DNA of 64,000 nt from a virus (Duplodnaviria; Caudoviricetes), in the IMG/VR virus record IMGVR_UViG_3300028534_000024, positions 9,350 through 73,349 of that record; one strand, written 5' to 3'. A program made the translations under genes and the position numbers. Of this stretch, positions 7,670 through 63,856 are shown one piece after another. The notes under the pieces were generated by a model. The model had not been told where the DNA came from and made no database searches. It saw only the letters and a list, made by a program, of their open reading frames with translations. The stretch's first letter is position 1. The number at the start of each line of letters is the position of its first letter.

Positions 7670-10600
7670 ATGGCTTTAACAACTAATTATAAGTCAGTTC
7701 TAGATTTGGATTTTAATGTTCATGCTGAAAAGTCCGAACAAATATTAGATAGAATAAATAAAAGTATCTTAGATACTGAAAAGATGCTAGATAGGTATGC
7801 TAAATCTATTAATAGTACTTATGAAAAACAACTTCAATTAATAAATAGGATTAATGAGGGTACTATTAAAGAAAGGGAAGCAGTTTTAAAAATTAAAGCG
7901 GCGGAAGAGAAAAGATTAGCTACTGAAAAAAGTAGAATAAAAGTAAAAGAAAAAGAAAATATATTACAACAAGAAATAAATAGCAAAGCTCAAATGGAGG
8001 ATCATTGGCTAAGAACTAGGAAGGAACTAGCTAAGTATAATGCGGAGTTAAAAAGTACCGATCATAGTATGGGAAGTGTATTCTCTAGAGCATTAGCTAC
8101 TGTACCAGCTTTTTATGCTGCGTATTCATTATTAGATATGATTAAATCTGGATTACAGGCAGTTGTTAATGAAGCAATTCTGTATGATAGTACTATGAGA
8201 ACATTAAGTGCTGTTACAGGAGAGAGCTTAGATGTTACAGCTAAACTATCAAAAGAAGTACTAGAGTTAGGAAATGTATATGGTGGGAACTTAAATGATT
8301 TAGCTAAAACATCTCAAGAACTTGCTAGAGCAGGTATTGCTACAAACGAACTTGCTAATGCTACTAAAGTTGCTACACAATTAGCATTAATTACAGGGGA
8401 TAGTATACAAACTGCTACAAATGCTATAGTATCCTACTCACAAGTATATGCTAAAGCTAATGGTAAAATGATATATAGTACACAAGATTTAGGTGATAAG
8501 CTAGCGTACATGGCGAATGCTTCTAGACTATCTGTACAAGATATTGGGACGCTATCTAACTATGCTCTAGCCTCATCTAAATCAATAGGTTTAACTATAG
8601 ATCAAGTTAATGGTCTTGCTATTGCTTTCGCTAATGCGGGTAATAACGCATCTACTATTGGTACACAAATAAGAAGATTTTCTTCTACATTGAGCTCTAA
8701 CTCATCAGCAGTTAAAGAATTCTATAAAGCTATAGATGTTAATAGAAGTGAACTAATAAGTAATCTAGGTAAATCTAAGAATGGTACTGTAGAAGGCATA
8801 CAAGAATCTAATAAGGCATTTGAAGAATTTGTAATGAAAGTAAAAAGTCTTTCTGAGAATGAATTTAGAAATGCTATTTATGGTATGAATGTATTAGATA
8901 CACAATTCTTTACGCAACTACGAAACAATAGTGATGAAGTAGTTATGCATATGAAAAATTCATTTAGTGACTTGAACGGGGAATTAGATAAAACAGCCGT
9001 CATTGCCGATAGTATTAGTAAAAGATGGGAAAAAATGAAAAATAGGGCCCTTACTTTTGCTGAAAGTGATTTAAAAGAAGTTACAACAGTAGGTACAGGA
9101 TTAGTTGAAGAATTACAATTAGGTTTGGGGTCAACATTTGAGTTACTAACTACCGATATATCTAAAAATGCTAGAAAGTATACAGCAGATGTTAATACTA
9201 TAATAGCGTTTACTAATAAATTAAGAGATCTACAAGAAAAAGATAATAAAACAGATTCAGATAGAGCATTAATGGATGAGTATGCTGCATATGTTAAAAA
9301 GTATGAACTATTAAAGAAGATAAATAAATTAAAAATAGATGATAAACAAGTAAGTGCTGAATTAAATAATCAAGCTGTTATTAATGAAGTAATATTAGAA
9401 AGACAACAAAAAATAGTTGAAGCAGTAAATAAAGGGTTCTCATTAAATAGTATAGAAGTAGAAAAAATAAAAAGAAAATATGCTGGAGTTATAACATTAT
9501 TAAATACTGGATATAAAAAACATCAGGAATCCTTAAAACAAGAACAAGCAAAAAAAGATATTGTAAATATAATAGCTGATATAAAAAAGAATAAAGAACT
9601 TAAAGCTGATGATGATATTATACAGAGTTTAAATAGACAAGCATACCTAAAAGCTGTATCAGCTGGGCTATCAAAAGAAGAAATACAATCATTAGGTATA
9701 GTAGTAGATGAACTGACAAAAGTAGAAGCTAAGCATATAAATATTAAATCAATACAAAAAGATCAGCTTAGAGACCTAGAAACATATAGTAAGTTAGTTA
9801 GAGATTCATCTGTATCTACTGATGATCCAATGTTTCAAGCTTTCGAAACTCAAATGTCAGATTTAATTAATATGCAATCTACATCATTGACAAAATATAA
9901 AAATGATTTAGTTAGGTTAGTTAATGATGCTAATAAATTGGATCTTAAAATAGCAGATCCTAAAGGGGCTATTGATCTATCAAAAGAAGTGGAAGAACTA
10001 GTTAAAGCTAATAAATATACAGAGGCTAATAAAAAATCAATAGAAGCAACCACTAAACTATACCAAATAAGAACAGATTTATTAACAGAAGAGAAAAGAC
10101 TTGAAGAAGAAGGTGTAAGTAAAGAGGATGAAAGATATAGTAAACTTTTAGCTATACAAGAGGCTGTAGAAGGGTGGTTACGAGGACAAGCAGACTTAAA
10201 TAAAGAATTACTTATCACAGATGAAACATATACTAAAGTAAATAAAAATGCTAGTAATGTAACAGCTGAAGTAAATAGAACAGCTCAAGCTATTATAAAT
10301 GCTTCTAATAATACAATAGCTTTTTCTAATCGTATGAATCAATTAGCTGTCCAGACTCAAATGTTAGCACTTAAATGGGAAGCATTTAAAGGTAACTTAA
10401 AATCAACAGATTTAGGACAGATTAAAGTAAACCTAGATATAGATAGTACTAAAAAAGATATAGATGCTTATAGAAATGAAATAACAAAATTAGGCTCTAG
10501 AATGTTATCTGGCGATAGTAGCCCAGAACTCTTAAAACAAATAGATGATTATAAATATAAAATAGAACAGAAACAATTAGAATTAGGTAATCTAGAATTA

Positions 10601-24956: not shown

Positions 24957-25275
24957 CTATATAAATAAACCTATATAGTTATCTTATAAAGTAAGGACTA
25001 TCGTCCTATATATTGGGAACCTTTCGGTTCAGACTGATATTATACCATAAAAGTTATGTTTTGTCAAGTCTTTTTTGAAATTTATATAATATTTTTCAGG
25101 AAACTTTTGTAACAAAAGAAAATTGAAATTAATTTATATTATTATATAAAGTTTCCTAACAAGATATACCATTTAAAGCAACAGAATGGTACTTTAAAAG
25201 GCTTTTCTTTTAGTTTAGGTATCATAGGCTACCTAAGATGTAAAACCTTTCATATTTGCTTTTAAATTATTTATC
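24957..25275 (-). repeat. Repeat family A, copy 1 (promoter -35 at 25062-67, -10 at 25039-44, two hairpins)
   Basis: 294 bp shared with 35155-35448; homology to copy 3 extends to 25275. Confidence 0.97.
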
Positions 25276-26301
25276 AATTCTTATTCCGTGATACACAGGA
25301 AACCTAGGAATACCCCCATCAGTAAATTCGAAGAACCTTACTTCAGCTAACTGTCCAATATACTCATTTTTGTTTTTAAGTATTTCTTTTCTCTCATCTA
25401 TTGATACTTTCATATTACATTTAAAAGTTGTATCATTGATTTTACATATAACTGTACCTTGCGTAGTATCTGCTTCATTAGGAATAACATCAACTATTTC
25501 GTAAGTCTCATCTATAAAGTCTTTATATTTAAGAAGCGATTTGGATCTTTTATTGAACTCATAATGTGTATTATCAGTTCTGACTATCGTCCCTTCATAT
25601 CCTTGTGATAGGAATTGTTTATGCCAACCTTTAAGTTCATCTAATGAGTTAACTTTATATGTAGGTACTATTTCTATATTATTTTTATATATACATAAAT
25701 TATAAAGCTCATCATATCTTTCGGAGAATGTTCCTTTAATAGAAGGCATATCATACACATAGTATTTAATCTTTTCTGTTTCATTTTCTTGATATTTTTT
25801 AACTCTTGAGATTATTTCTTGGAATGTCATTCCGTGACAGTATAATTCACCATCAAGTATATCTTCATCAGTTAAGAAAGACAAATCGATATGTTCCACT
25901 GTTGTAACTTCTCTATTCTTTCTTGAAAGTTTGTTTTTATTTGTCCCTACCATTCTTACACCATCTAGTTTAGGTTGTACATAACAATGAAACTCAATAG
26001 TCTTCTCATTAAACTTATTTGCTAGCATAGGCATAAGTGATGTATGCGATTTAGCTTCTTCAAGTGTTTCAAAGTACCCTTCTTTTAATTTCTTAGTAAT
26101 AAGAGCTTCCATTTGAAGTATTGATTGTTCATCAGCAGTTGTTTCATTAGCTCGACCTATATTCTTAGCTTTACACTCTCTGATATTAGTTACTAATTTA
26201 CCATCAAGTAAACCTGATTCTTGATAAAGAAGATGTCCTTTAGTGAACACTCTCAATATCCTTATTTTGTTCTTACTATCTTTTTTATATAATGTTTTCA
26301 T
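25267..26301 (-). CDS. ATP-dependent DNA ligase
   Basis: 'PMLA', 'QPKLDGVR', 'LDGELY', 'YDMP', 'EGTIVR', 'LLKYK', 'PRFP'. Confidence 0.93.
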   Translation of the reverse strand: MKTLYKKDSKNKIRILRVFTKGHLLYQESGLLDGKLVTNIRECKAKNIGRANETTADEQSILQMEALITKKLKEGYFETLEEAKSHTSLMPMLANKFNEKTIEFHCYVQPKLDGVRMVGTNKNKLSRKNREVTTVEHIDLSFLTDEDILDGELYCHGMTFQEIISRVKKYQENETEKIKYYVYDMPSIKGTFSERYDELYNLCIYKNNIEIVPTYKVNSLDELKGWHKQFLSQGYEGTIVRTDNTHYEFNKRSKSLLKYKDFIDETYEIVDVIPNEADTTQGTVICKINDTTFKCNMKVSIDERKEILKNKNEYIGQLAEVRFFEFTDGGIPRFPVYHGIRIDK

Positions 26302-26578
26302 GTATGTTCCTACTATCTATGGTATTAAATAATTTGTATATATCTGCCACTTCATTTATTACATCGTCACAAGATTGTTTAGTCAAATCTATAGTTAGTT
26401 CATATAGATTAAATGTAGATTTTCTATGGGTAAGTCTTGTGACAGGTAATATTTTTTTTTTTTTATATTTATCTAGCAAGTAAAATATTAATATATATTT
26501 ATCAGTCTTACATCTAATACATTCTTGGTAGTATCTACCAAGAATATCTTTCATATTTTTATTATAAATTGTTTTCAT
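26285..26578 (-). CDS. Hypothetical protein
   Basis: ORF with AAAGGA RBS in operon. Confidence 0.5.
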   Translation of the reverse strand: MKTIYNKNMKDILGRYYQECIRCKTDKYILIFYLLDKYKKKKILPVTRLTHRKSTFNLYELTIDLTKQSCDDVINEVADIYKLFNTIDSRNIHENII

Positions 26579-27000: not shown

Positions 27001-28058
27001 CTTTATATTCAGATGAGGTCGTTAATCCCATCCCGCTTATTAGTAAGCTGCTGGTACTTTCATACCAGAATAGATCATATCATGAACCTTAGTTTTAGTG
27101 AAGGTCCCCTACCTTTTCCATCTCACTCGAGATGTACTCTACTTGCTTCTCATAATACCTATTTGTATTGTTCTGCGTTCGATGATCGTTACACATGTTT
27201 GTATTAAGTTTGTTAAATATAATTCTATCATTTTTTGTTAATCTATTATTTCTAAGCTTAGAAATAATAGAAGGGTCTAAATCAAATTTTCTTGCTATAT
27301 CTGCGTTAGTATTATCTGCAAAGAAAGCATCTATAAGTAATGCCTCCCTGTCGTACATAAAATTATTTTTTGTACTTACATTAGCTACCTGATTCGGAAA
27401 TTTTGTATCCCACACACTTTTCCATCTCTTTTTGTGTCGAATCAATGATACATATCTTGGATGTAAATTAAAAAGTATCGCTACTTCCTCGTTCGTTCTA
27501 CCATCTATAAGAAGCTTAATTACTTGCTCTGCGTCATTATTTGTCAATTTAGCATTGTAGCAATCCTCGCCTTTAGGTACTTTGACTAACCCAGTAGTAA
27601 TAGCGTGTATTTGGTTCTCAGATCTAGTTACCCATTCTAAGTTACTAATATTATTATTAGTTTTGTCACCATCTATATGATTAATATGTGGTTTATTGTA
27701 TGGATTAGGTATAAAAGCTTCTGCTACTAATCTATGGACCAACTTTGTATGTCCTTTCTTATTATTATCCCTTAAACCAACCATCACATATCCAGTATTA
27801 CTTATAGTAGTTGATAACTCTTTTGGTACTAGCCTATTATAGTAATTATATGATATTACTCTACCATCCGTAGTTATTTTATATTTATCGAAACCTAGTA
27901 TTGTTTTGCTTTTCATATTCTCTCCTTTATATCAGATAGAATATTATATTACTTAATACAAATTTAGCACGGTATTGCCATATGCTTTCGCACTTAGGGT
28001 TCCACCGTTTAGATAGGTTTTATATCTATATGTTACCATATAGTTGGACTCAAAGTTA
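27001..28058 (-). ncRNA. Group I intron (IA2-like) in nrdB
   Basis: 5' exon ends in U; P1 UUGGAU/GUCCAA; P2 CUAUAUG-GUAA-CAUAUAG; P3 CCUAUCU/AGGUAGG; P4 ACGGU/ACCGU; P7 GAUCA/UGAUC; P9 CUGGUAU-GAAA-GUACCAG; terminal G. Confidence 0.92.
27095..27916 (-). CDS. Intron-encoded HNH homing endonuclease (NUMOD4-like + HNH)
   Basis: 'YKITTDGRV', 'LVHRLVAEAFIPNP...INHIDGDKTNNNISNLEWVT'. Confidence 0.93.
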   Translation of the reverse strand: MKSKTILGFDKYKITTDGRVISYNYYNRLVPKELSTTISNTGYVMVGLRDNNKKGHTKLVHRLVAEAFIPNPYNKPHINHIDGDKTNNNISNLEWVTRSENQIHAITTGLVKVPKGEDCYNAKLTNNDAEQVIKLLIDGRTNEEVAILFNLHPRYVSLIRHKKRWKSVWDTKFPNQVANVSTKNNFMYDREALLIDAFFADNTNADIARKFDLDPSIISKLRNNRLTKNDRIIFNKLNTNMCNDHRTQNNTNRYYEKQVEYISSEMEKVGDLH

Positions 28059-58147: not shown

Positions 58148-58439
58148 AATTTATCCTTTTTATATATTTAAATATACAATGCTATTTTTAAGTAACTCTT
58201 CAATAGTGTTATATATTTTATAATGCTTGATGTTTATTGTAGATGTTTTAAGCTTGTTGCCATTTCTGTATTGAATTTGTATAAAAGGATTTACATCATC
58301 TATTTTACATTTATGTGCTTGTATATATTTATAAAATACATCATCTGTTCATAGTACTTCAAACTCTATGATTTTATTATTTTTTATATAAAACATTACA
58401 TATCTAGTGTTATTGAATTTAATTTCATAACTTTATCCT

Positions 58440-59085: not shown

Positions 59086-59730
59086 TCATTCTCCTTTGGT
59101 TTTATTTAATCTGCTTTTTGCAATATTGTAATAGGTCTCATCTATTTCTATTCCCATAAAATTTCTACCTAACTTTAACGCAACTAATCCAGTACTTCCA
59201 CTTCCCATGCAAGTGTCTACTACTAAATCACCATCGTTGGTGTTGTCTATAATAAGCTCTTCTAGTAAAGAGTGTGGCTTTTCCGTAGGGTGAAGTTTAC
59301 TCCTACCAGTTGGGTGTACTAACCAGTTCTTTTTACATTTGCTGTTTAGTTTTCCAGTACCTTTCTTCTTAAACCACACTGCATTTTCTGTAGCACTTAA
59401 ATATACATACTCCCCATTCATAGGCGATGGGTTTGATTTGGCGTAAACAAGCTGTCTAGTTGTCCCTAGCTTCAGTTTTGACTTTTTTGCGAAGAACTTA
59501 TAAATAGTTGAATACTGTTCGTTACCACAGAAGATAACGAATATATCAGCAGAATTGTAAATGTGTTCTTAGAACACATTTATGTCAAATGTTGGTATAT
59601 CTGCTATTCCCTTGTTCAGGTTCCTTAACCCATTACTTTCCCTGTTTACTTTCCCGTAGGGTATATCGGTAAGCAATAACCTACATTTTGGGATATCCAC
59701 CTCAGTACAATCTGCATTAATTAGTTTCAT
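59086..59730 (-). pseudogene. N4/N6 DNA methyltransferase (beta class) interrupted by one in-frame TAA
   Basis: MKLINADC..TDIPYG..FDINVF*EHIYNS..HPTEKP..DTCMGSGSTG..GIE in a single frame; stop at 59569-71. Confidence 0.88.
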
Positions 59731-59990
59731 CTCGCTCCCCTTTATAATTCTCAGGTACTGAACCATCAAATGGTTCTATTTTTTTTACAGTTATGTTCCG
59801 TCTCATAAGGTAACAACACTGGTGCCACAAAATCGTTGTTTACTTACATCGTTACCCATACTAACTCCCCCTCTTTAGGTTCCCATTTTTTAGCTCAGTG
59901 GGGTTATACGCGAAACCATCACTGAGTAGGACTCGCCCATTAACTTCTTCCACCACTTGTAGTGTTTCTTTTTTTTTTTTAATTTGTTTA
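59717..59990 (-). pseudogene. Decayed ORF similar to the C-terminus of the 58440..59084 protein
   Basis: Fragments 'KWEPKEGELVWV' and 'IEPFDGSVP' in shifting frames; begins at a 12-nt A run. Confidence 0.5.
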
Positions 59991-60536: not shown

Positions 60537-60803
60537 TTACTGAAACAATTTATTTAATTCATTAGAATCACTTGAAGCTTCAATCATGTTATACTGATTG
60601 AAGCTTACCAAATCCATAATTTCAGCTATAATCATATTATAAATACCATCAGACACCCAAGCTGATGTATTAAATACTTTCATAACACCATTATGAATTT
60701 GTAAGCTCCAATCTTTGCCCTCATAAGAGGACATATTAACATCTTTTTTAAATGGGTAATCTAAATTCGCCCAAAAACTTTGAATTTCTAATAAATTTTT
60801 CAT
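60537..60803 (-). CDS. Hypothetical protein
   Basis: AAAGGA RBS. Confidence 0.55.
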   Translation of the reverse strand: MKNLLEIQSFWANLDYPFKKDVNMSSYEGKDWSLQIHNGVMKVFNTSAWVSDGIYNMIIAEIMDLVSFNQYNMIEASSDSNELNKLFQ

Positions 60804-62630: not shown

Positions 62631-62887
62631 TAATTTCAAAATCTCAGAAATTCATCATCACGCTACATAAATATAACCCTTAATAAAAATATAATATCAA
62701 TTTTAAGGTACCTAGAAGCCAAAATAAGCCACTTTAAGAACGCTTAGCGACCAAAGATATAGGTAGCACTATAAATAGCTTTAAAATGGATTTTCAGATA
62801 CCTACAAACCGACCAAAAAACAAATAATAAAAAACCAAACACGCTAAAAATAGCAGAATGGTTTTATTATTTAAAGAAGAGAGTTAC

Positions 62888-63856
62888 CTATTTGGTAACC
62901 TCCTCCAAATCTATAACTACAGTATCCATATCGTCCAAACTCTTGGCTATGAAGCCATTTGTATGTACGAACACTGTATTTGATACACTTACAATCTTCT
63001 GTACATCAGTATCTACCTGATATGTCCAGTTATTTTGGAGTTTATCATAAGATACAAAAATCTTTGTACCGTACCCATTATCCCATAACCACTTAGCAGC
63101 CATTGGGAATGACTGAAAATCTTCAAAATAGACAAACTGCCCTTTAACTTTAACAGTATTTTTGATTTTATTTATCTTTGATTCAGCCTCTTTTTGAGTA
63201 TTTGAAGCTATTTCTGAAATAGTTTTATATAGCTCACAAGCCTCTATGGTTCCTTTAAAATATTTTGTGAATAAATCTGTTAAGGTATTGAACATATCGT
63301 CCTGCTCTTTTGAAGCTATATCTAGCTGATTACATCCTGATATAGCATTAAATAACATATCAAAAGTGACATCTTGGCAAAATATAGAGTTTTTCCATTT
63401 ATCGTATTCAACTCTAGTATCTCTAGCATCAACAGCAGTCACCAAATTTAATAGAGATTGAGATGGCTCAGATACTACAGTATCTACCCACGGACACTCA
63501 CCCATATCACAGCAGGCACTCATAGGCTCTGTTAGAGCCTTAAAAATCAATCCTGCACTAGATAACCCATAAAGTTCATCACCCTCTCTGAATTGATGGT
63601 GATCAAACTCCCCCAATACTGCATAGCCTCTGAATTGTGTCATTGACATATAATCTCCATAATATGAAGACCAGCATGTAGGAGCATACTCCCCTCCTAC
63701 ATCGATTTTAACATCACAAGAGCTTAATTCTTGTGGATTTCTAGTACGCACAAGCTCTACATTATCTTCTATATATGCTCTATAAAGAGCCATTGCTACA
63801 ATTTCATCTGCGTGAAATACGCCGTTGTGTGTTCCTATGTTTAATTTTGTTTTCAT
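62888..63856 (-). CDS. MYG1 (UPF0160)-like phosphoesterase/exonuclease
   Basis: 'GTHNGVFHADE', 'RTRN', 'DVGG', 'FDHHQ', 'LSSAGLI', 'VDARD', 'FVHTNGFI'. Confidence 0.85.
   Translation of the reverse strand: MKTKLNIGTHNGVFHADEIVAMALYRAYIEDNVELVRTRNPQELSSCDVKIDVGGEYAPTCWSSYYGDYMSMTQFRGYAVLGEFDHHQFREGDELYGLSSAGLIFKALTEPMSACCDMGECPWVDTVVSEPSQSLLNLVTAVDARDTRVEYDKWKNSIFCQDVTFDMLFNAISGCNQLDIASKEQDDMFNTLTDLFTKYFKGTIEACELYKTISEIASNTQKEAESKINKIKNTVKVKGQFVYFEDFQSFPMAAKWLWDNGYGTKIFVSYDKLQNNWTYQVDTDVQKIVSVSNTVFVHTNGFIAKSLDDMDTVVIDLEEVTK

Follow-up and report, generated by a model that had tools for sequence, protein, structure and literature searches.

A palindrome-centred stop codon in a phage DNA methyltransferase gene and its probable origin by template-switch loop inversion

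The gene for a DNA methyltransferase (MTase) in the phage genome analysed here is interrupted by a TAA codon at the exact centre of a perfect 25-bp palindrome, and a sister strain carries the same palindrome with only its central base complemented and the gene open. We propose that the interrupted gene is probably a recent loss-of-function allele produced by general template-switch loop inversion, that it could revert by the same route and that it is probably not part of a dedicated switch. The flipped centre in the sister strain, two further loop inversions and compensatory changes in hairpin arms together make template switching, or micro-inversion, the best-supported origin of the stop on sequence grounds, and the process could run in reverse. 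Throughout, "the window" denotes the whole 64,000-nt stretch of DNA analysed, which comprises bases 9350–73349 of a 73,349-bp IMG/VR record (CheckV completeness 56%), has a GC content of 29.6% and is densely coding under the standard genetic code. The features discussed are collected in Table 1.

Table 1. Positions in the window of the interrupted gene, its palindrome and the hairpins compared between strains
Feature	Position	Strand	Remarks
Orphan β-class N6/N4 DNA MTase gene, 214 codons, stop-interrupted	59086–59730	−	PF01555, PHROG 67, 5hek/5hfj
Perfect 25-bp palindrome, 12-bp arms, 1-nt centre at 59570	59558–59582		Arms identical in L054 and L055; centre complemented in L055
In-frame TAA, also the hairpin triloop; replaces an invariant Leu	59569–59571	−	TTA in sister strain
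Hairpin, 7-bp arms, 7-nt loop; loop inverted relative to sister strain	63715–63735		GCTTAAT vs ATTAAGC
Hairpin, 11-bp arms, 3-nt loop; loop inverted, with compensatory arm pair	26521–26545		Within 95-aa ORF
Hairpin, 12-bp arms, 8-nt loop, in 88-aa gene	60575–60606		Compensatory pair in sister strain

The interrupted methyltransferase gene and its palindrome

When the TAA is treated as Leu, the gene becomes a single open frame (product P0001). This read-through product scores 85.7 bits with PF01555 (cut-off 26.7), aligned over profile positions 5–220 of 221, and also matches PHROG 67 (E 6e-44); among proteins of known structure, a DpnA-type adenine MTase comes closest (5hek/5hfj, E 1e-19). Translation probably starts at the ATG at 59730, which follows a GGGGAG Shine-Dalgarno site, and the protein then comprises 214 aa. 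Motif IV (D35-I-P-Y38) and motif I (G189-S-G-S-T-G) are invariant in an alignment of 32 sequences, motif IV lies N-terminal to motif I, which is the β-class order, and the second residue of motif IV is Ile rather than Pro throughout the subfamily. In its domain, its IV-before-I order and its size, the protein resembles small β-class MTases of ~215–240 aa such as the H. pylori DpnA-type M1.HpyAVI (5hek/5hfj), an assignment made by sequence match; it differs from them in having DIPY as motif IV and in being interrupted. Presumably, the MTase protects phage DNA from host restriction.

The TAA falls at codon 54 of the 214-aa protein, which is residue 67 of P0001, and splits the frame into two pieces, one of 53 aa (called as 65 aa) and one of 111 aa. 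The position is Leu in all of the 32 aligned homologues, and the codon used there is TTA at 40 of 47 viral loci; we therefore take TAA to be derived from TTA. A functional enzyme made of two pieces was considered and rejected, as the next in-frame start, M117, would lose the conserved residues 68–116. Readings in which the codon is not a true stop were likewise rejected. An alternative genetic code or stop recoding does not fit the 79 long frames, which are terminated by TGA, TAG and TAA in 18, 15 and 46 cases, respectively. Code 25, in which TGA is read as Gly and which would fit a GGA-to-TGA lesion described below, is contradicted by the MTase gene and many other genes that end in TGA. As to a suppressor tRNA, neither the window nor the remaining 9.4 kb of the record contains a tRNA.

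The + strand of the palindrome reads TAAATGTGTTCT-T-AGAACACATTTA, with 12 perfect pairs. On the coding (−) strand the frame runs ..AAT GTG TTC TAA GAA CAC ATT TAC.., so that the middle base of TAA is the palindrome centre and codons 63–66 pair with codons 68–71 in the hairpin. As single-stranded DNA, the site forms a hairpin with an 11-bp stem and codon 67 as its triloop (dG −8.8 kcal/mol, z −4.1, with 0 of 200 shuffles as good). Because the reverse complement of TTA is TAA, inverting either the loop or the whole 25-mer exchanges Leu for stop, or stop for Leu, and alters nothing else.

The palindrome and the stop at its exact centre had been reported in the preliminary description and were confirmed in the sequence. 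The chance estimate of 0.004 given there was too low for DNA of 29.6% GC: from 200 dinucleotide-preserving shuffles of the window, 0.125 palindromes with arms ≥12 bp and a loop of 0–5 nt are expected, and two are observed, which is still above chance. For arms of at least 10 bp, the corresponding values are 1.5 expected and 6 observed, and perfect palindromes in the window are altogether 4- to 16-fold enriched over shuffles. Given the peptide INVFLEHIY and the codon usage of the phage, the probability of 12-bp arms is ~3e-4; they require the rare codons GTG (8%), CAC (25%) and TTC (26%). Among odd-centred palindromes of the window, this one has the longest arms. A structured RNA at or near the site was sought in Rfam, which yielded only a sub-threshold, chance snoRNA-like match. 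A Gram-positive LexA (Cheo) box requires GAAC-N4-GTTC and was rejected, the site being GTTC-N3-GAAC.

Two alleles in a pair of strains

Both split products of the window are present in the protein collection, and the 90% identity cluster of the C-terminal piece has one further member, an intact 226-aa protein encoded on the sister contig L055. This 75,976-bp JGI contig (IMG 3300005095) derives from a study of a deep-sea hydrothermal-vent sulfide chimney (PMC7329443). It carries the identical 25-mer with its centre complemented, reading TTC TTA GAA, with all 24 arm bases the same. The coding-strand centre is thus A in the window and in L054, a second contig with the stop allele, and T in L055. 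The L055 protein is the read-through product of the window, and over the 684-nt frame the two sequences show only two differences, the centre base and a synonymous site at 59668. An intact 214-aa MTase with all motifs and no other lesion, which had been predicted by flipping the centre, is therefore found in nature: L055 encodes exactly that protein, with Leu.

L054 is a 4,488-bp Logan contig (SRR8439170) that was assembled separately and shows no mismatch and one homopolymer-length difference to the window. Identity between L055 and the window is about 87–99%, patchwise; the L055 sequence used for comparison amounts to 34.5 kb, retrieved by exact-protein look-ups. Among ~15 billion proteins and 153 billion gene positions, the methylase locus of this phage occurs in these three contigs only (window, L054 and L055), and look-ups with neighbouring proteins gave no further contigs with the locus. 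The 25-mer with either centre had no match in the viral, genome and metagenome collections, in scans that exclude near relatives, and a nucleotide search of GenBank phages returned only MTase fragments of ~70% identity. The two stop alleles are near-identical and possibly come from one sample, and the Leu allele is represented by one contig.

Homologues of the MTase are numerous (~2,000), with the closest only 73% identical. At 47 homologous viral loci, the site has 0–5 consecutive complementary pairs and 3–8 of 12 in total, and the 31 closest proteins all lack the peptide INVFLEHIY. The palindrome is confined to this lineage, being absent from homologues at ≤73% amino acid identity; the check proposed earlier, whether homologues keep it through synonymous sites, was thus negative. 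Breaks in short database fragments of homologues fall at many different positions. One distant homologue, 65–75% identical and represented in two ENA samples (L052/L053 437–450), is broken at the same Phe-Leu junction. There the lesion is a 1-base deletion in a T5 run (TTTTTA to TTTTAA), and the locus has no palindrome.

The surroundings of the gene also differ between the strains. A second nonsense mutation lies 1.2 kb from the MTase, where Gly16 of a 78-aa gene (58163–58396) changes from GGA to TGA at 58349–58351 (− strand); it is outside any palindrome and is shared by L054. Two small genes of L055 (L055 11338–12125), which encode 95 aa and 114 aa and match no family, are missing at 58404–58425 of the window. 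Furthermore, 56 bp upstream of the MTase ATG, the window and L054, but not L055, have a single-copy insertion of 182 bp (59787–59968), which lies between A-runs, has 43% GC against 30% for the window and holds an 18-codon mini-ORF behind a strong GGGGGAG site. The insertion gave no Rfam or tRNA match, and its folding is unremarkable (z −0.17). In the strain of the window, the block that contains the MTase gene is in flux or undergoing decay. Elsewhere, the DNA ligase of the sister strain is called in two pieces (209 + 143 aa; L059 6601–7637), whereas that of the window is intact (344 aa; 25267–26301), so that each genome has its own lesions or sequencing errors.

Hairpin inversions elsewhere in the strain pair

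We scanned every perfect hairpin with arms of at least 7 bp and loops of at most 8 nt over the ~28 kb common to the window and the L055 record (L055 + L059), using a gap-averse alignment to detect inversions. Apart from the MTase palindrome, two loops are inverted between the strains. At 63715–63735, in a MYG1-like gene, the window reads CACAAGA-GCTTAAT-TCTTGTG and the L055 loop is the exact reverse complement, so that 5 of the 7 loop bases (63722–63728) differ and ELS becomes ELN. At 26521–26545, the window reads ATTCTTGGTAG-TAT-CTACCAAGAAT and the relative ATTCCTGGTAG-ATA-CTACCAGGAAT; all three loop bases (26532–26534) differ, and one arm pair is T-A in the window and C-G in the sister, with pairing kept. 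A third hairpin, at 60575–60606, has a G-C versus A-T pair in the sister strain, plus one mismatch.

Of about 41 informative hairpins, 3 are flipped; for arms ≥10 bp, the count is 2 of 5. The per-site divergence of the strains is 2.9% (729/25,404), and A-T changes make up 98 of 666 mismatches (15%). Clusters of differences with flanking arms are found only by the reverse-complement transform; reverse-only and complement-only controls give no further such cluster, with the exception that the ATA/TAT loop at 26532–26534 is both complement and reverse complement. Two apparent inversions that have no arms (62752–62757 and 63385–63387) lie at the edges of diverged segments and were dismissed as chance.

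Several further observations concern hairpins of the window. When loop inversion was simulated at hairpins inside long frames, a stop was created in 10 of 85 hairpin-in-ORF pairs. One of these latent toggles, currently open, is AGTATCT-T-AGATACT at 7763–7777 within a 1714-aa gene, which is TTA-centred and would become TAA by a centre flip. At 62745–62775, L055 has a hairpin TACCTATA-TCTTTG-TATAGGTA; the window has the reverse-complement loop CAAAGA with the left arm replaced by diverged sequence, which may reflect more complicated template switching or the edge of a recombined segment. The 26521 hairpin lies in a 95-aa ORF (26287–26574) between nrdB exon 2 and the ligase; this ORF is missing in relatives of 88–93% identity (L061–L063; JGI 3300026521, ENA ERZ27262639) and resembles a small gene that was inserted recently. 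The longest palindrome of the window, at 27242–27271, has 15-bp arms, no spacer and a central AAGCTT; it lies in the nrdB intron/HNH region and is kept in the 93% identical relative L061.

Template switching and other origins of the stop codon

In the lineage of the window, codons 63–71 would have formed a perfect, codon-aligned palindrome by chance or through templated mutation. During replication, the nascent strand may then have jumped, while in the arms, to the opposite template, taken up the loop in reverse-complement form and returned to its own template, in what is termed inter-strand template switching, or spacer or loop inversion. The codon for the invariant Leu would thereby have changed from TTA to TAA, giving a nonsense allele with no other change; the ON allele of the sister strain would be ancestral and the OFF allele of the window strain recent. 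The palindrome outlasts such an event, so the same process could restore TTA, and this allele would revert more readily than an ordinary nonsense mutation does.

Inter-strand switching inverts loops at perfect hairpins in rRNA and miRNA, and a compensatory change together with a loop inversion gives the strongest support for the inter-strand model (PMC8794818). In yeast coding DNA, spacer inversions are found only at arms >9 bp and are reversible; ten occur in S. cerevisiae genes, for example the K/L flip in SPO75 (PMC8604942). In the light of these yeast and rRNA studies, we read the compensatory arm changes and loop inversions of the phage pair as footprints of inter-strand template switching. 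Indeed, as in yeast, rRNA and miRNA (PMC8604942, PMC8794818), the phage arms are perfect in both alleles and the spacer is exactly reverse-complemented; the 12-bp arms of the palindrome accord with the arms >9 bp and short spacers of the yeast cases, and several events are seen per genome comparison. The event at 26521 combines an arm change with a loop inversion, which is the strongest-support pattern of PMC8794818. Unlike the yeast spacers, the phage spacer consists of 1 base (or a one-codon triloop) and toggles sense and nonsense, and with it the whole gene ON or OFF, where the yeast flip alters a single residue. In further contrast to the yeast and rRNA cases, the host of the palindrome is a phage, and one transition is seen, with no recurrent flips on a tree.

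According to the work cited in PMC5941160, phage T4 provided the first description of template switching at inverted repeats, and the hotspots at quasipalindromes covered by the reviews PMC5941160 and PMC7202029 include phage T4 rII (Ripley 1982) and E. coli thyA and rpsL. These hotspots resemble the present site in that the opposite arm templates a replication error inside a gene, and quasipalindrome template switching would explain both the enrichment of palindromes and the compensatory arm changes. Classical quasipalindrome events, however, perfect imperfect arms, whereas here the arms are already perfect and only the centre has changed, so that the inter-strand version of the switch is required.

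Several points count against an origin by template switching. The 1-nt centre leaves no multi-base signature at 59570, and a single A/T difference could be an ordinary transversion; such a signature is present at 63722–63728 (5 changes) and at 26532–26534 (3 changes plus the compensatory pair). Furthermore, only three contigs have the locus, and L054 may come from the same sample as the window. Finally, the ordinary GGA-to-TGA nonsense mutation 1.2 kb away indicates that plain decay operates in the block. The same mutation also speaks for a T-to-A point mutation with which the palindrome had nothing to do. A-T transversions account for 15% of mismatches, TTA is one step from TAA, and the distant homologue is broken at the same Phe-Leu junction by another lesion (−1 in the T5 run). 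We nevertheless regard such a coincidence as unlikely, since the chance of an A/T difference at 59570 is ~0.4% (2.9% × 0.15), the strain comparison shows two flips among five long-armed hairpins and the two multi-base loop inversions reveal a process active in this strain pair. A one-off mutation had been among the earlier alternatives.

An assembly artefact was also put forward earlier; more broadly, the stop might be an error of sequencing, amplification or assembly at the palindrome, such as an MDA chimera or an inverted-repeat-specific Illumina error. Palindromes provoke template switching by amplification polymerases, and the record is a metagenome assembly with a completeness of 56%. Such an artefact is very improbable, because the stop is also present in the separately built L054, which shares private features with the window, namely the insertion of 182 bp and the premature TGA of the 78-aa gene. 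In addition, a consensus base requires a majority of reads, and the 12-bp arms are short enough for assembler k-mers of ≥21 to extend into unique flanks, which should fix the centre unambiguously.

A more far-reaching possibility is that the palindrome has been selected as a contingency switch, in which a centre flip that needs neither recombinase nor repeats toggles an anti-restriction MTase, and populations would mix methylating and non-methylating genomes. Known phasevarions rely on mod genes with simple-sequence repeats, and invertible hsdS loci are driven by recombinases. The phage locus is like these phase-variable MTases in having ON and OFF alleles separated by a small, in principle reversible DNA change, but it has no repeat tract, recombinase or invertible segment, its MTase is an orphan and the element is not conserved in homologues. 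Both states occur naturally on an otherwise identical gene with the palindrome intact. The palindrome is codon-aligned, uses rare codons and has a loop codon whose reverse complement is a stop, its odd-centred arms are the longest in the window, and yeast spacer flips are reversible (PMC8604942).

On the other side, the palindrome is missing from every homologue at ≤73% amino acid identity, the 10 stop-creating cases among 85 hairpins indicate that such toggles arise by chance in AT-rich coding DNA, and the other flipped hairpins alter only one to three residues, with no switch-like meaning. A crude rate, based on small numbers and on surviving changes only, is ~0.3–0.4 flips per long hairpin over a divergence of ~0.03 per site; the flip rate would thus be about 10 times the per-site substitution rate and orders of magnitude below known phase variation. 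Among the three contigs, no homoplasy is seen and the states differ only between strains that diverge by 1–3%, and neighbouring genes are decaying in the same strain. We therefore consider an evolved switch improbable, somewhat more so than a chance point mutation. The preliminary description had joined template switching or micro-inversion to a phase-variable switch; the mechanism gains from the flipped allele in L055, and the switch loses from there being three contigs with no repeated switching seen.

What the present case adds is that the open allele is actually observed, with both alleles in hand. A stop allele made by loop inversion would be a clean natural example of a hairpin loop whose inversion toggles a stop codon in a phage gene. 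The genome pair shows a wider footprint of template switching, in the form of inverted loops, compensating changes in arms and more perfect palindromes than expected. Where substitutions at palindromes of viral metagenomes are clustered or odd, they should accordingly not be taken for independent point mutations or errors. If the flip rate were high, the site would represent a new minimal route to phase-variable DNA methylation, and if the palindrome were indeed a selected switch, it would define a new class of phase variation through which a phage hedges between methylated and unmethylated genomes. Under the origin that we favour, by general template switching, some nonsense alleles of phage accessory genes may be built to be unusually revertible.
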